NCBI GenBank assembly: GCA_963708725.1
Contig: CAVPTL010000006.1
Span: 96,226 to 160,225 of the forward strand
DNA length: 64,000 nucleotides
Direction of reading: 5' to 3'
DNA from: an uncultured Actinomycetes bacterium
GTDB lineage: Bacteria > Actinomycetota > Thermoleophilia > Gaiellales > JAICJC01
Both the position numbers and the translations under genes were made by a program. Positions 10,148 through 36,687 of this stretch are shown here, one piece after another. How positions within the stretch are numbered: position 1 is the first letter of the stretch; every line of letters starts with the position of its first letter. The notes beneath the pieces are model-generated. The model was given only the letters and a program-made list of their open reading frames with translations. It had not been told where the DNA came from and did no database searches.

Positions 10148-10178
10148 GTGAATAACGGTGCCAGGCACCGTTATTCAC
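10148..10178. repeat. REP-like palindromic element, 31-nt subfamily (centre A)
   Basis: GTGAATAACGGTGCCAGGCACCGTTATTCAC is a perfect 15+1+15 palindrome. It lies between the convergent gene ends at 10141 and 10175. Confidence 0.9.
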
Positions 10179-11614
10179 AGACCGGTGAGCGCGGTTATGC
10201 GACCGCTCTCCACAGCCTGCTGGAGCGCGTGGTAGTCACGTTCGTTCTGGTCGGCGTAGGCCTCGGAGAACTCGGCGATCGCCTGGTCGAACACGTCGCC
10301 CGTGCCGAGGTATGACGCGATTGCGATCCGGTCGCCCGAGCGGGCATGCGCTCGTGCCAGAGTCCACCCACACAGCTCGGCGTACATCGCCAGGCCGTCG
10401 ACCGCGAGCGTATCGACCTCGATCGAGCCCTTCCAGTCCTTGAGCTGGCGGCCGTAGAAGTCGCGATGCTGGCCGTCGAGATTGCTCTGGGCATGCAACC
10501 ACCCGAGAAAGATGTCGCTGCTGGCCTGGATGAGATGCTGGCCGGCGACCACCCGCTGGCTGTGGCATGAGTACTCGCTCGGCTGGAGGTACTCCTCCAG
10601 AACCGAAGCCTGTGCTTCCTTGAACTGCAAGAACAGCGGATCGTCACCGTCCTTGCCCATCAGCAGCACGATCCACGCGCGCGTGCCGACGCTGCCCACC
10701 CCGACCACCTTGAAGGCGATGTCCACGAACCGAAACTGCTCGAGCAAGAGCCGGCGGTCGCTTTGCAGCGAATCCCGATACCCGCGGATGATCTGCCGCA
10801 GCTGGGCCCATGCGGCCTCGCCGGGCTCTCCGTGGAGGATGTCGCGGGCCGGTTGGATCAGCGGTGGGGCGCTGATGATGCGGAGCTTCCCGTCCACCGT
10901 CTCGGTCAGCCGGGAGAACTCGTGCAGGCTGTCTCGCGTGCGGGTCTTTGCGATGTTTCGTTCGAGCAGCCGCACGCGCTTTGCGTCGAGCTGGGATCGC
11001 AACGCGTCGAAGGTCGTATCGACCTCCTGGCGGGCGTACCACACGGCCAGATTCGTCATGGTGGCGAACTCGCGCATCGCTCTGCGATAGCTCGCGGCCG
11101 TCCGGCGCACCGCGGTCGTGCGCTGCTTGAGAGTGAGGCCGTTTTCCCGCCCGGAGACCGCCACACTCGCAGCCAGCCGCTTGACGTCCCACTCCCAGGG
11201 GCCGGGGAGCGTCTCGTCGAAGTCGTTGGCGCCGAACACCAAGCGCCGGTCGGTCGATGCGAACATGCCAAAGTTCGAAAGGTGTGCATCGCCGCATAGC
11301 TGGGCGTTGAGTCCGGAGCTGGGCGTGGCGGCAAGATCGCAGGCCATGATCCTGGCCGCGCCGCGGTAGAAGGCGAATGGCGAGTTGAGCATCCGGCCGT
11401 AGCGAATCGGCACCAGCTCGGGCACGCGTGTGGCTGCCTGCTCCTCGAGCAGCGTCACGGGATCCGGGCGATCGGCCGCCGGGGCAAACTCACCGTGGCG
11501 TGAACGCGGCACCCGCTGGCGGGCGAGCTTGCCGTGACGGAGTCGCTCGTCGACCGTCGAGTGGTGCACGGTCGTCCCGAACTTGAGGTGGCCCTCGCCC
11601 GGCACGTCGCTCAT
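10175..11614 (-). CDS. DUF2252-domain protein
   Basis: 479 aa. ..RYGRMLNSPFAFYRGAA.., ..CGDAHLSNFG.. and ..NDFDETLPGPWEWDVKRLAAS.. are characteristic DUF2252 motifs. Its ATG overlaps the stop of the upstream methyltransferase (ATGA at 11611-11614). Confidence 0.8.
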   Translation of the reverse strand: MSDVPGEGHLKFGTTVHHSTVDERLRHGKLARQRVPRSRHGEFAPAADRPDPVTLLEEQAATRVPELVPIRYGRMLNSPFAFYRGAARIMACDLAATPSSGLNAQLCGDAHLSNFGMFASTDRRLVFGANDFDETLPGPWEWDVKRLAASVAVSGRENGLTLKQRTTAVRRTAASYRRAMREFATMTNLAVWYARQEVDTTFDALRSQLDAKRVRLLERNIAKTRTRDSLHEFSRLTETVDGKLRIISAPPLIQPARDILHGEPGEAAWAQLRQIIRGYRDSLQSDRRLLLEQFRFVDIAFKVVGVGSVGTRAWIVLLMGKDGDDPLFLQFKEAQASVLEEYLQPSEYSCHSQRVVAGQHLIQASSDIFLGWLHAQSNLDGQHRDFYGRQLKDWKGSIEVDTLAVDGLAMYAELCGWTLARAHARSGDRIAIASYLGTGDVFDQAIAEFSEAYADQNERDYHALQQAVESGRITALTGL

Positions 11615-12756
11615 GTCGCGACGATGACCTGTTCGTAGAACTCGCCGCCGCGCCGGCCCGTGCGCCGGTTGACGTGGCGACGGCGCCGCTCGATCACCCT
11701 CAGACCCGCGTTTTCGAGGATGCCGGCGTACAGGTCGCGGGCATCGTCGATCACGATGACGAACACCCCGCCGGGCCGCGTGTGGGCGAGTGCGTGCGTG
11801 AACACGGCGGTCATGTCGGCCACGTAGTCGGCGGTCACGCGGCGCGACACTCCCCGCACCGCAGCGCCGATCTCCTCGTCGCGCTGATCGTCGAGGCCGA
11901 GCAGCTCGAACGCGTAGCGATGCTGCTCGTGGTAATCGATGCGTCCGGGGTAGGGGGGAGAGGTGATCACACCGTCGAACCGGAGATCGCCGAAGTCGAC
12001 GGTGCGCGAGTCATCGTGCAGCACCGTCGCCGAGACGTCGGTGCGGATGCGCGCGTACTCCCGTACCCGAACGATCGTGTCGAGGCTGTAGCGGCGCAGA
12101 AACTTGAGCGCCTCCGAGGTCGGGTGACATGTGCGCTTGTGTTTGTGGCAGTCATAGGGGCCGGTGACCGGCTTGCGCGGAAACTCGAGGTCGTGGTGGG
12201 CGGTTCGCCGCGCAGAGCGGGCAGCGCGTGACAACACCACGCTCATCAACTCCCGGGTTTGGGGATAGTCGTCGAGCAGGCTGCGGTAGAACAGCAGCTC
12301 CTCGAGTGCGCGGGGTGCATACCACTCGGTGAGATACGCGCCGGCTGGGGGCAGCGCCCGGTGCGGCGGGGCCGCTGGCTGGTAGCGCTCCATGCGGGTC
12401 AGCGCGGCTCGCAGGTCGTGTTCCACCACGAAGGGGTTGTGAACGCCGCTCTTGACCCGGCCGAGGAGCGCGTTGAAGGCCGAGATGTCCACTCCCACGC
12501 TGGGACAGCCGTAGACGCTGGCCTCGACCAGCGTGGTCCCGCTGCCCGAGAACGGATCGAGAATCACCTCTCCGCGGGTGAAGTGCCGGTCCAGAAAGAC
12601 CTCGACGAGCTGCGGGACGTACTTGCCGAGATACGGGTGCAGGCGATGCATGTGCTTGGTGCGTTCGCGCTCCGGAAGCTCGGTTTCGGCCCACGAAATC
12701 TCGGGATCGACATCGGTTTCGAGCAGCGCCTTGGAGATCTCTGCCTGGGTGGCCAT
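11611..12756 (-). CDS. SAM-dependent N6/N4-type methyltransferase (DNA, possibly RNA) with unusual motif order and large insertion
   Basis: Motif I-like HPYLGKYVPQLV..VILDPFSGSGTTLVEA lies at aa ~40-78. Catalytic motif IV ITSPPYPG lies at aa ~265-272, separated by ~190 aa. No restriction endonuclease gene is adjacent. Confidence 0.75.
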   Translation of the reverse strand: MATQAEISKALLETDVDPEISWAETELPERERTKHMHRLHPYLGKYVPQLVEVFLDRHFTRGEVILDPFSGSGTTLVEASVYGCPSVGVDISAFNALLGRVKSGVHNPFVVEHDLRAALTRMERYQPAAPPHRALPPAGAYLTEWYAPRALEELLFYRSLLDDYPQTRELMSVVLSRAARSARRTAHHDLEFPRKPVTGPYDCHKHKRTCHPTSEALKFLRRYSLDTIVRVREYARIRTDVSATVLHDDSRTVDFGDLRFDGVITSPPYPGRIDYHEQHRYAFELLGLDDQRDEEIGAAVRGVSRRVTADYVADMTAVFTHALAHTRPGGVFVIVIDDARDLYAGILENAGLRVIERRRRHVNRRTGRRGGEFYEQVIVAT

Positions 12757-12808
12757 GGGCGTCGACCTTAGCGACCGGTGCGGACGATCTGATCGCTACT
12801 CTGAATCC

Positions 12809-13234
12809 ATGTCCAACAACGTCAAACCCCTCTACGGCGCCGAGCACGTGCGCCGATACCGCGAGACCGATGGTGAAGTCGGTCACGACTGGAACGGTAC
12901 CCAGGCGCTGATTCTCACCACCGTCGGGCGCAAGTCTGGCAAGCGCCACGACACACCGCTGATCTACGCACCCTACGGCGATGCGTTTGTGATCGTGGCC
13001 TCCAAGGGTGGGACGCCGAAACACCCAGCCTGGTATCTCAACCTCACGTCTAACCCTGAAGTAGAGGTTCAGGTTGGGCCCGATCGGTTCTCCGCGAAAG
13101 CGCGCACAGCGACCGGGAACGAGCGGCAAGAGCTGTGGGGTCGCATGACCCACGAATGGCCCGCCTACGACTCGTACCAGGCAAAGACCGATCGCGAGAT
13201 TCCGATCGTCGTGCTCGACCGCCTCGACACCTAG
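12809..13234 (+). CDS. Deazaflavin (F420)-dependent nitroreductase family protein (Ddn/DUF385-like)
   Basis: Starts at MSNNVKPLYGAEHVRRYRETDG. ..TTVGRKSGKRHDTPLIY.., ..VIVASKGGTPKHPAWYLNL.. and ..ERQELWGRM.. are hallmark motifs of this family. Confidence 0.8.
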   Translation: MSNNVKPLYGAEHVRRYRETDGEVGHDWNGTQALILTTVGRKSGKRHDTPLIYAPYGDAFVIVASKGGTPKHPAWYLNLTSNPEVEVQVGPDRFSAKARTATGNERQELWGRMTHEWPAYDSYQAKTDREIPIVVLDRLDT

Positions 13235-15117
13235 GCGGCCAACGCCGCCCGTGCTCGGGCGAGCTTGACCGCGGCCGTCAACGTGGGCAGGTCGTAGGCG
13301 CCGTTGTGGCGCAGCCCGTTGATGAAGAACGTCGGCGTTCCAGAAACCCCGCTCATGTCGGCCGTGTCGACGTCCTCGGAGATACGGCCGACACGGGCGT
13401 GGGTGCGCAGATCTTCGGCAAACCGTTCGCGGTCGAGATCGAGCACATCGGCGTAGCGCAACAGGTCTCGCACCTTGAGGGCATGCTGGTGGTCGAGCAG
13501 GACGTCGTGCATCTCCCAGAACTTGCCCTGCGCCGCAGCCGCCTCGGAGGCTTCCGCCGCCAGCTGTGCGTTGGGATGCACGTCGTTGAGCGGAAGGTGG
13601 CGCCACACATACCGCGCGTCCCCGAAATCGGCCAGCAGGTCGCGTACGACCGACTCGGCCTGGCCACAGAACGGGCACTCGAAATCGCCGTACTCGACCA
13701 CGGTCACCGGGGCGTCGTGAGGCCCGCGGATGTGATCACGATCGGGATCCACATCGGCCGCGAGGTCGATGATGACATCGGCCGAGCCCAGAAGCGCGCG
13801 GATCTGGAGCCGCTTGGGAAGCCTGGCCGTTGCCCGGAAAACGACCCATGTGATCACCGACGAGAGCAACGCTGCGGTCAGGACTCCGAGCTTTGCCTGC
13901 TCGAGCTGCGTCCCGCTGAAGACGAGGGTGGCGATCAGGATCGAGACCGTGAACCCGATCCCGGCAATGGTGCCACCACCGGCGACGGCGGCCCAGCCAA
14001 CCGGCGGCCGTAGCCGACCCCGAGACACCATGGTCACGAGCCACGCCGTGCCGGCGATCCCGACGGGTTTGCCGACCACGTAGCCGACCATGATCCCGAG
14101 TGTGATCGGCGAGGTGAAGGCGCCCGAAAGGAAGCTCCAGTTGAGGACGATTCCTGCGTTGGCCAGGGCGAACAGCGGGACGATCACGTAGCTCGTCCAC
14201 GGGTGAAACTGCTGCTGAAGGCGGACGTTTGGTGAGATCGCCGACCTGACACCCGCGGTCGCGGTGGCCGCGAGCTCCGCGGTTGGCTGCTCTCGGAACT
14301 CCCGGAACAGATCGGAGGCCCGCTCCAGATCCACGCGGGCGGCGGGATAGGCCGAGACGACCAACCCCATCACCAGTCCCACCACCACCGGGTCGACCCC
14401 GGACTGCTCCATGAAAAGCCAGGCGCCGCCCCCGAGGAGGACGTACACCGCGCCGTAGTGGATGCCAAACGATCGGGCGGCCAGGGCAACGGCGAGCACG
14501 ATCACGGCCATCGCCAACTGGGCGGTCTGGATGTGCTCTGCGTAGACGATGGCAATCACGGCCAACGCGACCATGTCGTCGACGATCACCACGGTCAGCA
14601 TGAAGGCCTGGAGCCGGTCCGGGAATGACGGGCCGACCAGCGCGAGCATCCCGAGCGCAAACGCGGTGTCGGTCGACATCGCGGTGCCCCAGCCGTGTGC
14701 AGAGGAGTGCCCGGCGTTGAACAGCAGATAGATCGCGATCGGCACCAGGATCCCGCCGAGCCCTGCCAGCGCCGGAAGCGCCACCCGCCGCCGCTCACGC
14801 AGCTCGCCCATGTCGAACTCGCGACGTGCCTCCAGGCCGACGACGAAGAAGAAGAACGTCATCAGTCCGGCGTTGATCCATTCCTGGAGCTCGAGCGCGA
14901 TGCCGTGATCGCCCACGTGGATCGAGAGCACCGTGTCCCAAAGTGAGTTGTAGGAGGAGCTGTCGATGTTGACCCACGCAAGCGCCGCCAGGGTCGCTGC
15001 GAGCAGCACCGCAGCTCCTCCGGTCTCGGTGCCGAGGAACTCGCGCAGCGGCGTCGGCACGTTACGGGCCCACGCGGTGGTGCCGGCGAGTGTCCGCCCA
15101 TTCGTCGACTCGGCCAT
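13231..15117 (-). CDS. nhaA: Na+/H+ antiporter NhaA fused to a C-terminal DsbA-like thioredoxin domain
   Basis: N-terminus PLREFLGTETGGAAVLLAATLAALAWVN and the following polytopic region are NhaA-like. The C-terminus VTVVEYGDFECPFCGQAE.. is DsbA/thioredoxin-like with CPFC. Start chosen at ATG 15117 (MAESTNGR). Confidence 0.85.
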   Translation of the reverse strand: MAESTNGRTLAGTTAWARNVPTPLREFLGTETGGAAVLLAATLAALAWVNIDSSSYNSLWDTVLSIHVGDHGIALELQEWINAGLMTFFFFVVGLEARREFDMGELRERRRVALPALAGLGGILVPIAIYLLFNAGHSSAHGWGTAMSTDTAFALGMLALVGPSFPDRLQAFMLTVVIVDDMVALAVIAIVYAEHIQTAQLAMAVIVLAVALAARSFGIHYGAVYVLLGGGAWLFMEQSGVDPVVVGLVMGLVVSAYPAARVDLERASDLFREFREQPTAELAATATAGVRSAISPNVRLQQQFHPWTSYVIVPLFALANAGIVLNWSFLSGAFTSPITLGIMVGYVVGKPVGIAGTAWLVTMVSRGRLRPPVGWAAVAGGGTIAGIGFTVSILIATLVFSGTQLEQAKLGVLTAALLSSVITWVVFRATARLPKRLQIRALLGSADVIIDLAADVDPDRDHIRGPHDAPVTVVEYGDFECPFCGQAESVVRDLLADFGDARYVWRHLPLNDVHPNAQLAAEASEAAAAQGKFWEMHDVLLDHQHALKVRDLLRYADVLDLDRERFAEDLRTHARVGRISEDVDTADMSGVSGTPTFFINGLRHNGAYDLPTLTAAVKLARARAALAA

Positions 15118-15145
15118 GGGGGCATTATGCAGATAGCCTGCGCTG

Positions 15146-16321
15146 ATGATCCCTGCGACCGTCCTTCGGCGCCGCAACGAGGGCGAAGCTCCACCGGTCA
15201 CGAACATGGAGTTGTTCTTCGACCTCGTGTACGTGTTCGCGGTCACGCAGCTCTCCCACACGCTGCTGCACCACCTCTCGGCCCGCGGCGCGGTGGAGGC
15301 GCTGGTGTTGTTCGCCGCGGTGTGGTGGGCGTGGAACTACACCGCCTGGGCGACGAACTGGATCGACCCCGATCGGCCGCAGGTGCGGGTGCTGATGGTG
15401 GTGCTGATGCTGATCAGCCTGATCATGTCGGCCGCCATCCCGGAGGCGTTCACGACCCGCGCCGCCGCGTTTGCGATCGCCTACGTCGCGATCCAGGTGA
15501 TCCGAAGCGGATTCATGGTGGCCGCCCTGCGGGGCCAGGTGATGGGCCGAAACTACGCCCAGTTGCTGGCGTACTCATGTTTTGCCGGCGTGTTTTGGGT
15601 GGCGGGTGCATTCGTGGGCGGCGACGCCCGGCTCGCGCTTTGGATCGTTGCGTTGGTGATCGACCTGTCGGCGCCACTCCACGGCTTTTGGCTTCCCCGT
15701 CTGGGCAGCACGCCACTCAAGGACTGGACGCTCGCCGGTGGACATCTGGCCGAGCGCTGTCAGTTGGTGCTCCTGATCGCCCTCGGCGAGTCGATTCTCG
15801 CCGCCGGGGCGACGTTCAGCGAGCTGGCCGACGTGACCGGGTCGATCGTCGTGGCGTTCGGTGTTGGCTTCCTCCAGATCGTGTCGCTCTGGGCGATCTA
15901 CTTTGCCCGGCATGCGGAGCTGGCCGCCCGCGCGATCTCCCACTCACTCGACCCGGCTCGCATCGGTCGTGCCGGCTATGCCTACGGACACGCGGTGATG
16001 GTCGCGGGCGTGATCGTCGCCGCCGTTGGTATCGATCTCGCGATCGCCGATCCCGGGGGCCAATCGTCAACGACCAGCGCGGCGGTGATCCTCGGCGGCC
16101 CGGCGATCTTCGTGGCCGGTAACGCGCTCTTCAAGTACGCGCTGACGGGCCGGATCCCTCGCGACCGCGCGATCGCGATCGCGCTTTTAGCCGCGCTCTC
16201 GGCGCTCACCGGCTCGGTCAGCCTGCTCGAACTGATCGCCTCGGCCACCGCCGTCACCGTTGGGCTGGCGGTGGTTTCGGCTGCGACTCCGATCGACGAG
16301 GCCGAACTCGAACTCAGTTGA
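15146..16321 (+). CDS. Low-temperature-requirement A (LtrA)-family membrane protein
   Basis: ..ELFFDLVYVFAVTQLSH.. is the N-terminal motif of this family. 391 aa, polytopic. Confidence 0.75.
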   Translation: MIPATVLRRRNEGEAPPVTNMELFFDLVYVFAVTQLSHTLLHHLSARGAVEALVLFAAVWWAWNYTAWATNWIDPDRPQVRVLMVVLMLISLIMSAAIPEAFTTRAAAFAIAYVAIQVIRSGFMVAALRGQVMGRNYAQLLAYSCFAGVFWVAGAFVGGDARLALWIVALVIDLSAPLHGFWLPRLGSTPLKDWTLAGGHLAERCQLVLLIALGESILAAGATFSELADVTGSIVVAFGVGFLQIVSLWAIYFARHAELAARAISHSLDPARIGRAGYAYGHAVMVAGVIVAAVGIDLAIADPGGQSSTTSAAVILGGPAIFVAGNALFKYALTGRIPRDRAIAIALLAALSALTGSVSLLELIASATAVTVGLAVVSAATPIDEAELELS

Positions 16322-32310: not shown

Positions 32311-32325
32311 CGATATGTGCGGTTG

Positions 32326-32356
32326 GTGAATAACGGTGCCAGGCACCGTTATTCAC
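32326..32356. repeat. REP-like palindromic element, 31-nt subfamily (centre A)
   Basis: GTGAATAACGGTGCCAGGCACCGTTATTCAC. The palindrome extends 3 nt further on each side (TTG...CAA). Confidence 0.9.
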
Positions 32357-32441
32357 CAACGCATCCACGCGCTACGCTGGTCCCGCTGACCGAAACCAGA
32401 GGGGGACCGGTGGATCAACGACGCGATGCGAGCTCACAACG

Positions 32442-33281
32442 CTTCGGCTGGCCAACCACGGCTACGGGCCGGTGGAGATCGGCGAGATGATCGAGCTGCC
32501 GGAGGAACTCGACCACCACTGGGCGTTGCGTGGCTACTACGGCACCGTGAACCACAACGTCAAGGCCACCTACGTCAAGTACCTGGGCTGGTTCGACGGG
32601 AACCCTGCGACGCTTCATACGCTCCCACCAGAGGAGGCGTCGAAGCGCTACGTCGAGTTCATGGGCGGGGCGGATGCGATCCTCGAGAAGGCTCGCGCCG
32701 AGTACGAGAAGGGCGAGTACCGGTGGGTCGCCGAGGTCGTGAACCACGTCGTGTTCGCCGATCCCTCCAACGCCGACGCCAGGGCGCTTCAAGCAGACAC
32801 GCTCGAGCAGCTCGGCTACCAGTCCGAGGCCGGCACCTGGCGAAACCTCTACCTGACGGCAACTCAGGACTTACGGCAGGGCGTGGCCAAGATCCCGTTC
32901 GGCGGCACCGCGAGTCCCGACACCATCAAGGCGATGACGCTCGAGCTCCTGTTCGACTACATGGGGGTGCGGCTGAACGGCCCCGATGCCGCGGCCGCCA
33001 CGATCACGCTTAACTTGAACGTGTCCGACACCGGCGAGCGGGCCGTGCTGGAGCTGACCAATGGCTCACTGAACCACTCGATTGGCCGCCAAGACGCCGA
33101 TGCCGACGCCACGCTCACCATGGACAGGCCCGTGCTGAGCGCCGTCGTCCTGGGTGAGATGTCGTCGGCCGACGCGATCGCGCAGGGGGTGCTCACGGCA
33201 GATCCCGACGCCAAGGCGCTTGATCAGCTGCTCGGATTCCTCGACAGCTTCGATTTTTGGTTCAACATCGTGGAGCCGTGA
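32442..33281 (+). pseudogene. 5'-truncated alkyl/aryl-sulfatase (only dimerisation + SCP2-like C-terminal domains; MBL catalytic domain missing)
   Basis: ..LRLANHGYGPVEIGEMIELPEEL..RGYYGTVNHNVKATYVKYLGWFDGNPATLH..GEYRWVAEVVNHVVFADPSN..QLGYQSEAGTWRNLYL.. matches the C-terminal two-thirds of SdsA1/YjcS-type sulfatases. The frame closes at a TAA inside the REP copy (32331-33). Confidence 0.7.
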
Positions 33282-33317
33282 GCCAACACCCCTGGTGACT
33301 TGAGAAAACCGTAGATC

Positions 33318-34607
33318 GTGCCGATGTCGTTCTCGATTGTGAGCACCCTGGACGACACGATCGGATCGCTGCGAAGCGCGCTTCTGGTTTCGCCGGACAA
33401 CTCGCCGTTGCGACGGCACCTTGCCGACACGCTGGTCTCGGCGGGGCGCTTCGGCGAGGCCGAGGTCGAGTATCGCGAGGGCCTTCGGATCACACCGGGC
33501 GACGACGAGCTGTCGATCGCGCTGGCAGAGTGCTTCTACTACCAGGGCCGTGTGGCCGAGGCGATGGTGCTCGCCGAGCAGCTCGATCAGGACGAGGTGC
33601 CTGGGGGCCGGCCCCAGCTGCTCTTGATGAAGCTTCATCTGGTCGCCGGCGAGGAGGATGAGGCGCGCACCGCTTACCTGCGCGCGATCGAGGCCGATCG
33701 CAGCCTCGCCAGCCGCGATCTGGAATCTCGCCTGGGATTGTTCGAGAAGCCCCGGGAGTCGATCGCCTTCGACGACGTCGGCGGCATGGAGGCGATCAAG
33801 GAAGAGATCCGTATGAAGGCGATCCACCCGATCGCGCACCCCGAACTGTTCCAAAGCTACGGCAAGGGAGTCGGCGGCGGCGTGCTCCTGTATGGGCCGC
33901 CCGGTTGCGGCAAGACGTATCTGGCTCGCGCCACCGCCGGTGAGATCGAAGGCACCTTCATCTCGGTCGGTCTCAGCGATGTGCTCGACATGTGGGTCGG
34001 GTCGAGCGAGCGAAACCTTCACCGCGTGTTCGAAGACGCCCGCCAGAATGCGCCGGCGGTGCTCTTCTTCGACGAGGTCGACGCGCTCGGCGCGAAGCGA
34101 TCCGACATGCGCATGAGCGCCGGCAAGCACGTCATCAACCAGTTTCTCGCCGAGTTCGACGGTGCCGACGCCAGTAACGATGGCGTGGTGATCATCGGCG
34201 CGACCAATGCACCGTGGAATCTCGACTCGGCGTTCCGGCGACCCGGGCGGTTCGACCAGGTCGTGTTCGTGCCGCCGCCCGACACATTGGCCCGGGCCGC
34301 GATTCTGGCGGTGCAGCTCGAGGGCAAGCCGCTCGCCGACATCGACCTCGACCGCGTCGCTGAACGGGCCGATGGGTTTTCGGGTGCCGATCTGATGGGC
34401 GTCGTCGACCGTGCTGTCGAGGCCAGGTTACGGCTCGCGATGCGAAGCGGAGAGACCGAGCCGATCACCGAGCGGGATCTGATCGACCAGGTCGAGCGCC
34501 TGCGCCCGTCCACCGATGAGTGGTTTGTCGGCGCGAAGAACTACGTCAAGTTCGCCAATGACGGTGGGTTGTACGACGAGCTGGCCGCCTATCTGAACGG
34601 CCGATGA
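33318..34607 (+). CDS. TPR-domain AAA+ ATPase (single CDC48/FtsH-type AAA module)
   Basis: N-terminal TPR-like helices (..AGRFGEAEVEYREGLRITPGDDE..). AAA motifs are VLLYGPPGCGKTYLA (Walker A), VLFFDEVDAL (Walker B) and ..ATNAPWNLDSAFRRPGRFD (SRH). Confidence 0.85.
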   Translation: MPMSFSIVSTLDDTIGSLRSALLVSPDNSPLRRHLADTLVSAGRFGEAEVEYREGLRITPGDDELSIALAECFYYQGRVAEAMVLAEQLDQDEVPGGRPQLLLMKLHLVAGEEDEARTAYLRAIEADRSLASRDLESRLGLFEKPRESIAFDDVGGMEAIKEEIRMKAIHPIAHPELFQSYGKGVGGGVLLYGPPGCGKTYLARATAGEIEGTFISVGLSDVLDMWVGSSERNLHRVFEDARQNAPAVLFFDEVDALGAKRSDMRMSAGKHVINQFLAEFDGADASNDGVVIIGATNAPWNLDSAFRRPGRFDQVVFVPPPDTLARAAILAVQLEGKPLADIDLDRVAERADGFSGADLMGVVDRAVEARLRLAMRSGETEPITERDLIDQVERLRPSTDEWFVGAKNYVKFANDGGLYDELAAYLNGR

Positions 34608-35812
34608 ACTCGACCTACGAACGGGCGGTGGCGCTGTTCAACACTCAGCGCTACGCAGACGCCGAACTCGAGCTTCGCCGGGTGATCGGCGACATGCCCG
34701 GTCACCTGCGGGCAAACGCGCTTTTGTCGCAGACGCTTGGGCGGCTCGGGCGTCACCAGGAGGCGATCGAGCAGGGACGGGTGGCGGTCGGCTGCGATCC
34801 CCAGCAGGCCGTCGGCTATTACGTGCTCGGCCTCGCGCTGGTGGCGGTGTATCGCGATCTCGAGGGGCTCGAAGTGCTCGATCGTGCGCTTGCGATCTCT
34901 CCGGCGATGGCGGCGACGTGGTCGGTGCGCGCGCTCGCAGAGCTCCACCTCAAGCGCTTCGACGAGGCGCTGGCACACGCTCAACACGCGCTCGGTCTCG
35001 ACCCGCGCAACCGCACCGCCGCGAGGGTGCAGGGCATGGCGTTGCGGGGTCTTGGCCGAAACGATGAGTCGGCCGCGGCAATCTCCGACGCTCTCGGGCA
35101 GGAACCCAACGATGCCCTCTCACACGAGTCGCTTGCCCGTACCCACCTTGCCAACCACGAGTACGAGGCGTCGCGGGATGCGTTTCGCGAGGCGCTGCGG
35201 CTCAACCCGCAGTCGAACAGCGCGCGTACCGGGCTGCGCGCGACCCTGCTTGCAAACCACCTCGCGTATCGGCTCTTGCTTCGCTACAACATGTGGTTCG
35301 CGCGCCGGTCGGATCGCGCGAAAAAGGCCGTGTCCTTTACGTCGCTGGTGTCACTGTTTTTGGTCACCCAGATCACCGCGCTTGCCCCGGCAACTCATGC
35401 GCTGATCGTGGTTGCGGCGGTGCTGCTGACGGGGCTCGTGTGGATGTCGCCGACGTGGAGTGCGCTGGTGTTGATGGCCGACCGGTTCGGCCGCGAGGTC
35501 ACGACCCAGCGGGAGCGGTGCGAGGCCATTGGCCTGGCCGCCGTGCTCGTGTGCGCGACGGTGTTCGCATTCTGGGGCGCCCTCACGCAACATCTAAGCG
35601 CTCTCCAGCTGCTGCCGTTTGTGATCGCCGGTTCGGTGGTGATCGTGAAGCGGCTTCGCATCCGGGAGTCGAAGCGGGTGCTCGCTACCCGGTGTCCACG
35701 GTCGAGGTGGCGGCTCATCGCCCACGCGCCGTCCGTCCAGTTGGACATCACCGTGTGGGTGGTGTGCGTCTCGGGGTTGTGGACGCTCCGAAACGAGACT
35801 CCCGGGTCGTAG
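34604..35812 (+). CDS. TPR-repeat protein with C-terminal multi-pass membrane domain
   Basis: The ATG overlaps the AAA gene stop (ATGA at 34604-07). About 6 TPR-like repeats (aa 1-215) are followed by 4 predicted TM helices. The last ~40 aa are antisense to the conserved part of gene 35395..36687. Confidence 0.7.
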   Translation: MNSTYERAVALFNTQRYADAELELRRVIGDMPGHLRANALLSQTLGRLGRHQEAIEQGRVAVGCDPQQAVGYYVLGLALVAVYRDLEGLEVLDRALAISPAMAATWSVRALAELHLKRFDEALAHAQHALGLDPRNRTAARVQGMALRGLGRNDESAAAISDALGQEPNDALSHESLARTHLANHEYEASRDAFREALRLNPQSNSARTGLRATLLANHLAYRLLLRYNMWFARRSDRAKKAVSFTSLVSLFLVTQITALAPATHALIVVAAVLLTGLVWMSPTWSALVLMADRFGREVTTQRERCEAIGLAAVLVCATVFAFWGALTQHLSALQLLPFVIAGSVVIVKRLRIRESKRVLATRCPRSRWRLIAHAPSVQLDITVWVVCVSGLWTLRNETPGS

Positions 35813-36687
35813 CCTTCGAGCTCGACACCCCTGTTCGACCTGTTCAGCCAGAACCCGAGGCCGTAGCGTCTCGATTCGCTCGGCACGTCACTGCGCGGCC
35901 GGGTCATCTCGGTCACCCAACGTTCCGACACGATGCTCGCGTCGAAAAACGCGATCCACAAGGCGTGGATGTCCGCCAGCGTCGAGTAGATGCCGCCGTC
36001 GCCGCTGCCTCGGACGGGGAGATGAAACACGTTGGTGCGCTGCCCGTCGGCTGTGATGTAGCCAACCGCTGCCCGCCCCGGTAGGTCGTCGGATCGCAGA
36101 AACACGGTGTCGACCATTCCCGCCCGCGCGAGCACCTCTCGCCGCACCAGCTCGTGAAACGGAGTTGCGGTCGTGCGTTCGGCGATCAGCGCGAGCACCA
36201 CGTAGCCGCTGTTGCAGTACTCGAACCGCTCACCGGGGGCAAACTTGGTCTCAAAGCCGCCGAGCACGCGCAGGTAGTCCTCGGTGTCGGCCAGCTCTTG
36301 CACAGGAACCGGCATCGCGTAGGCGGTGATATCGGAAGCCGTGTTCTCGTCGAGGTAGTCGCCGATGCCCGATCGGTGTGACAGCAGGTGCTCGACGGTC
36401 ACGTCATCTCGGATCAACGGCAGGTCGGGGCCGAGCGCCGAGCGCGCGGTCGTCGTCAGCTCGAGCGCGCCGGCCTCGATCAGCCGCACGACCGTGAGCG
36501 CGGTCAGGCCCTTGGTGCCGCTGGCGAGCGCGAACTGGGTATCGATCGTGTTGGGGATCTGGTGTCGGCGATCGGCGAATCCGTACGCCCTGGCACTCTC
36601 GATCCGGCCGTCGCGATCGACGCGCACCGCCCCCGAGAATCGCTCCCGTTCGGCAACCGTGTCGAGGTCGTGCTCCATGACGGGCAA
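35395..36687 (-). CDS. Serine hydrolase, beta-lactamase (class C/PBP4*-like) family, with unexplained ~95-aa 3' extension
   Basis: ..FALASGTKGLTALTV.. is the SxxK motif. ..HLLSHRSGI.. and ..YCNSGYVVLA.. are also present. The conserved region ends near 35690 (..SNWTDGAWAMSRHL). The ORF continues to 35395, antisense to the TPR-membrane gene. Confidence 0.8.
   Translation of the reverse strand: MPVMEHDLDTVAERERFSGAVRVDRDGRIESARAYGFADRRHQIPNTIDTQFALASGTKGLTALTVVRLIEAGALELTTTARSALGPDLPLIRDDVTVEHLLSHRSGIGDYLDENTASDITAYAMPVPVQELADTEDYLRVLGGFETKFAPGERFEYCNSGYVVLALIAERTTATPFHELVRREVLARAGMVDTVFLRSDDLPGRAAVGYITADGQRTNVFHLPVRGSGDGGIYSTLADIHALWIAFFDASIVSERWVTEMTRPRSDVPSESRRYGLGFWLNRSNRGVELEGYDPGVSFRSVHNPETHTTHTVMSNWTDGAWAMSRHLDRGHRVASTRFDSRMRSRFTITTEPAITNGSSWRALRCCVRAPQNANTVAHTSTAARPMASHRSRWVVTSRPNRSAINTSALHVGDIHTSPVSSTAATTISA

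Follow-up and report, generated by a model that had tools for sequence, protein, structure and literature searches.

A tetratricopeptide-repeat AAA+ ATPase and its membrane-protein partner as a candidate two-gene module at the bacterial cytoplasmic membrane

Within a 64,000-nucleotide (nt) stretch of the genome of an uncultured Actinomycetes bacterium of the Gaiellales (contig CAVPTL010000006.1, positions 96,226–160,225; hereafter the window), two adjacent genes encode an ATPase composed of tetratricopeptide repeats (TPRs) and a single AAA module, and a TPR protein with a membrane domain, here called the partner. Gene order across genomes points to a two-gene module kept together in hundreds of bacterial species. 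We propose, with a probability of roughly 0.45, that the pair constitutes a protease-free AAA+ unfoldase or remodeller at the cytoplasmic face of the membrane, with the ATPase as motor and the partner as anchor and specificity adaptor. The original prediction, made from the letters of the window, had reported the two open reading frames (ORFs; Table 1) and the overlap of the partner's ATG with the ATPase gene's TGA over 4 nt, and had suggested a dedicated two-gene unit outside characterised systems; the ORF list and a reading of the junction reproduce the positions and the overlap, and the idea of a dedicated unit withstood the comparisons of synteny and family membership described below.

Pairing was assessed by calling ORFs in all loci taken and building two hidden Markov models (HMMs), one for the AAA family and one for the partner's membrane half alone, the latter restriction serving to keep out generic TPR matches. 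The partner membrane half adjoins the AAA gene in 72 of the 83 loci, across at least eight phyla and nearly always directly downstream on the same strand, as expected if the two genes are syntenic beyond this genome; the window partner itself matches the membrane-half HMM at 2.5e-31. Among the 11 loci lacking a partner match, five have a contig that ends after the AAA gene, and another (L065) carries a TPR ORF and an ORF with five transmembrane (TM) segments in two frames just downstream. Spacing is tight: of 49 non-redundant loci with both genes, 13 show a spacing of −4 nt and four of −1 nt, with less than 50 nt in most others. All four members of a small actinobacterial clade keep the pair, each with a 4-nt overlap, in differing surroundings. 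The window pair has every feature of the cassette, namely a three-TPR N-domain, a single AAA module, an EWF...NY...GG.YD extension and a downstream six-TPR gene with an RFGR-loop TM domain. When neighbouring ORFs were clustered all against all, no third gene family was found: beyond the pair and antisense or overlapping-frame ORFs, none recurs in more than six of 81 loci, and no peptidase gene recurs beside the pair.

The two genes evolve at different rates but in step. Mean pairwise identity is 57% for the motor and 36% for the partner, and pairwise identities in the one protein track those in the other (r = 0.79). Eight loci (L011, L014, L017, L027, L057, L068, L075 and L079) have two partner paralogues beside a single AAA gene. 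A conserved motor accompanied by a faster-evolving and duplicated partner is the pattern expected of adaptors. The loci with duplicated partners are of Verrucomicrobiota/Planctomycetota type, with the copies mostly in tandem downstream and the first copy the more divergent.

Judged by its motifs, the ATPase is a classical-clade AAA+ protein with a predicted substrate-threading activity. Pfam confirms the combination of TPRs and an AAA module (TPR_19, 7.7e-12; AAA, 2.4e-39; AAA_lid_3, 6.7e-9), and the AlphaFold2 model (predicted local distance difference test score, pLDDT, 86.5) comprises an N-terminal helix, three TPRs, an AAA core, a lid and two extra C-terminal helices. The Walker A motif GPPGCGKT, the Walker B motif FFDEVD and the second region of homology, all noted in the original prediction, are present; the last of these reads ATNAPWNLDSAFRRPGRFD (residues 295–313). 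The marks of the classical AAA clade are found together: Walker A and B, a sensor-1 Asn, the Arg fingers of the second region of homology and an aromatic pore loop 1. Across 60 aligned homologues there is no variation in Walker A, Walker B, the sensor-1 Asn, either Arg finger or the Trp and Gly of the pore loop; the pore-loop Met is nearly invariant, and the N-terminal TPR domain contains many invariant residues; in the C-terminal extension the residues P, E, W, F, A, N, N, G, Y and D are invariant across phyla. The motor bears every catalytic and translocation motif, and what is new in it is the N-domain and the C-terminal extension on an otherwise classical AAA+ engine. By both sequence and fold, its nearest solved structures are the D2 modules of p97/VCP/Cdc48 (39–40% identity over ~270 residues; target-normalised TM-score 0.74–0.79).

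The best 120 database matches to the ATPase all share its architecture, at 51–67% identity, and carry generic names only ("AAA family ATPase" or "transitional endoplasmic reticulum ATPase"); against 59 family members the window protein is 54–68% identical over its full length. The shorter of its two possible forms, starting at the ATG, is the database form (P0001). With the C-terminal extension as a family-specific probe and one genome per species scanned, at least 600 species genome loci, and in fact more, give a match. The taxa listed among these matches are Planctomycetota, Verrucomicrobiota including Akkermansia, Lentisphaeria, Chloroflexota, Saprospiraceae (Phaeodactylibacter, Neolewinella), Melainabacteria, one Pseudanabaenaceae genome, Gemmatimonadaceae and Thermoanaerobaculia. 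These comparisons place the ATPase in a large, tight and unnamed family, which is rare in Actinobacteria (few small clusters among 5.8 billion proteins). Copies of the cassette of the type found in Planctomycetes, Verrucomicrobia and Chlamydiae (PVC) also occur in three metagenome bins, L017, L068 and L073, titled Bifidobacterium sp., Candidatus Nealsonbacteria and Chromatiaceae; these titles probably reflect binning errors, not true hosts. The C-terminus itself reads ...YLNGR in the window and ...YLKL/M in the family, so that the Tyr is not penultimate and there is no HbYX motif. Since, in addition, no peptidase gene recurs beside the pair, the motor probably feeds no protease.

The ATPase falls under the curated NCBIfam cut-off of every family model compared: CDC48 (TIGR01243; 218.9 bits against 802.65, with only model positions 450–688, corresponding to D2, aligned), FtsH (TIGR01241; 209.5 against 600, E-value 1e-61 and among the top NCBIfam matches), PAN (207.2 against 500), CdvC (NF041006; 180.7 against 650, 3.8e-53), Mpa (130.6 against 504.75), IteA (NF042959; 112.3 against 510, 2.9e-32) and EccA (TIGR03922; 32.7 against 466.65, with only residues 189–295 aligned). 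Architecture and context were considered alongside these scores, and each membership was rejected on both. Cdc48/p97/VAT proteins have D1 and D2 modules, where this protein has one AAA module and a TPR N domain; for FtsH, the TM helices and the M41 peptidase domain are missing; for PAN/Mpa (ARC), there is no HbYX- or GQYL-like C-terminus; for Vps4/CdvC, there is neither an MIT domain nor an ESCRT-III/PspA neighbour; for IetAS/IteA, the partner has TPR Pfam matches only and no IetS serine protease is present; and for EccA, the clade signatures are absent and ESX genes neither occur among the scanned window ORFs nor recur in the 81 loci.

The EccA comparison merits detail, because the original prediction had likened the TPR-plus-AAA layout to EccA of type VII secretion while assigning the AAA module to another subfamily, and had named orthology to a family such as SpoVK or CbbX as a finding that would refute its idea. 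Members of the SpoVK-EccA-CbbX clade carry a sensor-1 GY, a sensor-2 Arg and, four positions ahead of the first Arg finger, an Asn (PMC11513918). All three signatures are absent here: sensor 1 reads GATN, the position four residues ahead of the first Arg finger (R307) is D303, and GFSGAD carries no sensor-2 Arg. The resemblance to EccA is therefore architectural only. The predicted lack of ESX genes nearby also held: a Pfam scan of 20 window ORFs (eight around the pair, ten of the longest elsewhere and the two genes themselves, with the rest of the window outside the scan) found no ESX/type VII gene. A PADLOC search, proposed as a check for a known system, gave IetA/TRIP13-level generic AAA similarity only for the ATPase (IetA, 3.6e-34) and nothing past a marginal TPR model (1.2e-3) for the partner, and a PHROGs search returned generic AAA matches only.

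In its predicted manner of working, the pair resembles FtsH-LapB or the Cdc48/Msp1/spastin remodellers most, and it is a member of none of them. LapB (YciM) is a membrane-anchored protein with cytoplasmic TPRs that works with FtsH, and the two together are the system nearest in function: a classical AAA motor on the cytoplasmic side of the membrane, beside an anchored protein with cytoplasmic TPRs. Unlike FtsH, however, the motor described here has no TM helices and no M41 peptidase, and unlike LapB, the partner is anchored by four to six C-terminal TM helices instead of one N-terminal helix, lacks a rubredoxin domain and has no LapB model among its NCBIfam matches. Likeness to p97 D2 extends to the ATN sensor 1, GxSGAD, double Arg finger, aromatic pore loop and ExDG intersubunit motif, and a conserved Tyr/acidic C-terminal tail follows the lid as in p97, whose tail is DDLYG; the differences are the single AAA module, the three TPRs in place of the double-psi-barrel N domain, and a bacterial TPR membrane protein in place of UBX, Ufd1-Npl4 or Derlin cofactors. 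Vps4/CdvC, spastin and Msp1/ATAD1, which act at membranes, likewise have a single AAA module, preceded by a small helical recognition domain (MIT being TPR-like) and followed, after the lid, by extra C-terminal helices. Spastin and Msp1 bear their own hydrophobic hairpin or anchor, whereas here the membrane hairpins lie on a separate polypeptide, and unlike Vps4/CdvC the pair has no MIT domain and no ESCRT-III partner. EccA shares the order of N-terminal TPRs, AAA module and no protease, with a different AAA clade. IetA/IteA, too, has one classical AAA module and comes from a cassette of two genes (IetAS), but the partner here is no S8 protease and the motor sequence is conserved across phyla.

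Turning to the partner, Pfam matches are to TPR families only, and no Pfam model covers its membrane half. The AlphaFold2 model (pLDDT 84) contains 12 TPR helices (six repeats), a cap helix, an amphipathic helix (residues 220–233) and four long hydrophobic helices (237–258, 262–292, 302–328 and 337–363), and a hydropathy scan also gives four TM segments, in agreement with the approximately six TPRs and four TM helices originally predicted. Foldseek retrieves generic TPR superhelices only, and NCBIfam matches of the TPR region are weak (LcrH/SycD, 1.7e-6; SctY, 1e-6; pilus and exopolysaccharide TPR proteins). The partner lacks a signal peptide. Its Lys and Arg residues are placed before TM1 (four), in the TM2–TM3 loop (DRFGRE) and in the C-tail (six), and the other two loops are uncharged and of 3–8 residues; the positive-inside rule would place the N- and C-termini, the entire TPR solenoid and the conserved loop motifs in the cytoplasm, and the model leaves hardly any of the partner exposed outside. 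The conserved loop motifs are RFGR here and, in six-TM versions, additionally GWPR. Within the TM half there are few conserved polar residues, with only one Gly (G296) and one Arg invariant, which makes an enzymatic or channel role unlikely. A profile search with the membrane half yielded at least 686 protein clusters, nearly all of 413–422 amino acids (aa), and all clusters listed carry only the name "tetratricopeptide repeat protein". Compared with the PVC type, the actinobacterial clade has a motor without the acidic linker and its VVDGRxRA motif (alignment columns about 148–195) and a partner without the last TM hairpin and its GWPR loop (columns about 400–490). The alignments suggest that linker and hairpin were lost together in a single correlated loss, a hint that the two elements may work together.

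We propose that the AAA protein would form a hexameric ring and thread polypeptides, driven by ATP, through its invariant MWxG pore loops. The partner, as an integral membrane protein, would contact the soluble motor and tether it to the membrane, and it may pick what the motor is fed, as LapB does for FtsH; the substrates would then probably be membrane or membrane-associated proteins. In a bolder and doubtful extension, the cassette could be a widespread bacterial counterpart of Cdc48/Msp1-type membrane-protein dislocation, in which a D2-like dislocase is recruited by fast-evolving, sometimes duplicated TPR adaptors and extracts or remodels specific membrane proteins from the cytoplasmic side; the cassette would belong to the core of PVC bacteria, Akkermansia among them, and would have passed now and then to other phyla, as here.

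Several observations weigh against this proposal. An equal-dosage operon is also typical of a motor-and-substrate pair, as in archaeal CdvB/CdvC, and the conserved N-terminal TPR domain of the motor fits one fixed ligand, not necessarily the partner, better than varied substrates. About five loci truly have no adjacent partner beside the AAA gene, and full-text literature searches gave no description of the family, of a phenotype or of expression. In the window, where the pair lies on inserted DNA, a sigma-70 consensus scan, a poor guide for high-GC actinobacteria, detected no promoter-like site, a terminator scan likewise gave nothing of use, and an inverted repeat of 19 nt, perfectly paired around a 1-nt loop (GTTGGTGAATAACGGTGCC G GGCACCGTTATTCACCAAC; 32322–32360), forms a strong hairpin upstream of the insert.

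This insert, of about 3.3 kb, comprises a sulfatase fragment and the two genes. In blastn alignments of the window to the sister genomes L086 and L087, the match stops at 32376 and picks up again at 35683/35691; flank identity is 99.4–99.5% for L086 and 95–97% for L087, the flanking methyltransferase protein is unchanged in both (on a 2.6-Mb contig in L086), and both run from a LamG-like gene straight to a convergent beta-lactamase-like gene with no insert. A 6-bp microhomology (CGCTAC) occurs at both junctions with further imperfect similarity, and neither terminal repeats beyond it nor an integrase, transposase or recombinase were found for the insert, whose GC content is near that of the host. 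It looks like a chromosomal fragment of another high-GC actinobacterium captured by microhomology-mediated recombination, and the comparison with the sister genomes identifies the cassette as an apparent recent horizontal acquisition, and hence as accessory in this genome. The left end of the foreign DNA is marked by a truncated alkyl sulfatase gene whose reading frame is open back to the junction and in which Pfam finds the dimerisation and SCP2-like C-terminal domains only, without a metallo-beta-lactamase domain. The insertion point lies 16 nt to the right of the hairpin, which stands between the convergent LamG-like and beta-lactamase-like genes, is kept at the empty site in L086 and L087, and is probably a bidirectional terminator.

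The partner length of 402 aa given by the original prediction is an artefact of assembly or strain, the real length being about 360 aa. The right junction falls in the partner's last codons, beside the stop of the beta-lactamase-like gene, and removes the partner's own stop, so that the ORF runs on into antisense to 402 aa; residues from about 360 onward are encoded by the antisense strand of the beta-lactamase-like gene, past the junction, and the model is disordered beyond about residue 356 (tail pLDDT about 34–55). Three other sequencing runs gave contigs whose encoded protein is identical up to its end at residue 363 (...KRVLATR; P0121) and lacks the read-through tail, and on these contigs the convergent gene ends 11 nt inside the partner gene. 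Actinobacterial orthologues have 364, 372 and 374 aa. As a consequence of the read-through, the partner ORF overlaps the convergent ORF by 418 nt in the window. The convergent ORF is itself altered: in L086 the gene ends at a CTA matching window positions 35685–35687 (TAG on the complement), and relative to L086 the window has +1 and +3 nt just inside the right junction, which put this TAG out of frame and extend the ORF from 329 to 430 aa. The extra bases could reflect either a genuine mutation or a fault in the assembly. We infer that the exact sequence difference from the 363-aa contigs lies at 35693–35701.

For this window only, the cassette might be an inert passenger, a random fragment brought in by illegitimate recombination and either not expressed or not useful. 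We consider this somewhat unlikely. In its favour, the left end of the insert cuts into a sulfatase gene and the right end falls at or within the final codons of the partner, whose own stop codon is lost; the hairpin lies just upstream with no promoter-like site, and the sister genomes do without the pair. Set against this, both ORFs are intact over their conserved lengths with all motifs present, the same insert-bearing sequence was recovered in three independent sequencing runs, and the promoter scan is of little weight in such a genome.

The main rival to the reading of the partner as anchor and adaptor is that it is instead the substrate, a TPR/hairpin membrane scaffold or lattice that is bound through the motor's N-terminal TPRs and disassembled or recycled by the AAA ring, on the model of Vps4 and ESCRT-III, of NSF and SNAREs, or of spastin and its hairpin. 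The one-to-one conserved pairing with translational coupling agrees with this, as does the strong conservation of the motor's N-terminal TPR domain; hairpin-type TM pairs, minimal outer loops and an amphipathic helix are typical of membrane-shaping proteins, and CdvC, the archaeal Vps4, is among the better NCBIfam matches. Yet the CdvC score lies far under its cut-off and under the CDC48, FtsH and PAN scores, MIT domain and ESCRT-III/PspA gene are both wanting, and the partner's fast divergence and tandem duplication suit an adaptor better. On balance a substrate role seems unlikely.

Lower still in our estimation is a dedicated assembly or secretion chaperone with an EccA-like role, in which the motor would ready cargo or subunits and the partner would dock it at an envelope machine. 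The EccA layout and the weak partner matches to LcrH/SycD, SctY and pilus or exopolysaccharide proteins point in this direction, and several protease-free AAA+ proteins have been argued to be narrow-range chaperones (PMC11513918). The low EccA score, the three missing clade signatures and the absence of ESX genes among the scanned window ORFs speak against it, however; genes for secretion, pili or polysaccharides do not recur around the pair, and the partner's TPR matches are generic.

An anti-phage or conflict system, with the ATPase as sensor or motor and the membrane protein as effector, is the least probable reading: the IetA and IteA matches, the strain-specific insert, the patchy distribution in Actinobacteria and a baeRF-family gene after the pair in L001 favour it, but the IteA score is under its cut-off and under the CDC48, FtsH and PAN scores, neither an IetS-type protease nor any other effector domain is present, conserved polar residues are nearly absent from the TM half, the motor holds its identity across phyla, neighbours vary without a recurrent defence-gene family, and PHROGs matches are generic. 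Of the defence-island idea in the original prediction, the strain-specific insertion in this lineage stands; across the family's main range, 57% motor identity and a cassette with no effector gene do not look like a defence system.

Table 1. Coordinates in the window of the gene pair, its parts and the surrounding insertion.
Feature	Position	Strand	Detail
TPR-AAA ATPase gene	33318..34607	+	429 aa from GTG 33318, or 427 aa from ATG 33324
N-terminal helix and three TPRs of the AAA protein	33330..33695	+	AlphaFold2 helices 3-22 and 27-124, pLDDT >90
Walker A GPPGCGKT (residues 193-200)	33894..33917	+	invariant in family
Pore loop 1 MWVG, aromatic-hydrophobic-Gly (residues 225-228)	33990..34001	+	
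Walker B FFDEVD (residues 250-255)	34065..34082	+	
Sensor 1 ATN and second region of homology, Arg fingers FRRPGRFD	34200..34256	+	
Family-specific C-terminal extension PSTxEWFxxAxNYxxxxNxGGxYDxxxxYL, two helices	34506..34604	+	AlphaFold2 helices 396-411 and 418-426
ATGA stop/start overlap of AAA gene and partner gene	34604..34607	+	junction read ggc cgA TGA ac
Partner ORF (TPR-membrane protein)	34604..35812	+	402 aa as read
Partner cytoplasmic domain, six TPRs and cap helix	34604..35251	+	Pfam TPR families; AlphaFold2 pLDDT 91-98
Partner Arg-rich amphipathic helix and four TM helices as two hairpins	35261..35692	+	AlphaFold2
Conserved cytoplasmic loop motif DRFGR of partner	35480-35497	+	
Read-through tail of partner ORF	35693..35812	+	past insertion junction, antisense to beta-lactamase-like gene
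Insertion of ~3.3 kb: sulfatase fragment, AAA gene, partner gene	32377..35701		blastn against sister genomes L086, L087
5'-truncated alkyl sulfatase gene, passenger fragment	32377..33281	+	Alkyl_sulf_dimr 5.7e-63, Alkyl_sulf_C 2.7e-40
Convergent beta-lactamase-family ORF	35395..36687	-	430 aa here, 329 aa in L086; Pfam Beta-lactamase residues 12-323

An antisense ORF of 354 aa (33066–34130, minus strand) lies inside the AAA gene, and ORF clustering groups such antisense ORFs across 73 other loci; the cluster is a by-product of codon bias in a conserved high-GC coding sequence and no gene. In L001, the actinobacterial relative that carries P0003, a bacterial/archaeal eRF1-like (baeRF) family 2/3 gene directly follows the pair (10333–11427) and is not recurrent elsewhere. 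This locus shares a DUF2252 ... DsbA-like ... DUF2461-arginase neighbourhood with window positions 10175–15261 and with L086 positions 1–1236. Its cassette sits at a different point of that shared neighbourhood, which suggests independent insertions or relocation. The same region of the window encodes, on the minus strand (13231–15261), a 676-aa ORF in which an NhaA-type Na+/H+ antiporter domain is fused to a C-terminal DsbA/thioredoxin domain.

To our knowledge, bacterial membrane AAA+ machines are thought to be essentially FtsH, and protease-free extraction or remodelling motors of the Cdc48/Msp1/Vps4 type have been regarded as archaeal and eukaryotic. The partner described here is a dedicated new membrane partner of a classical AAA+ motor that keeps more than 50% identity in hundreds of species; the pair has no named family in NCBIfam or PADLOC, and Pfam has none for the partner's membrane half. 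It is present in tractable organisms, including Akkermansia muciniphila, Planctomycetes and Saprospiraceae isolates, and the window lineage and L086, with flanks 99.5% identical, provide a natural presence/absence strain pair suited to a first phenotype test. Widespread and found in culturable organisms, the family merits experiment; being conserved and unnamed as well, it offers a clean target for a new membrane proteostasis or remodelling activity.

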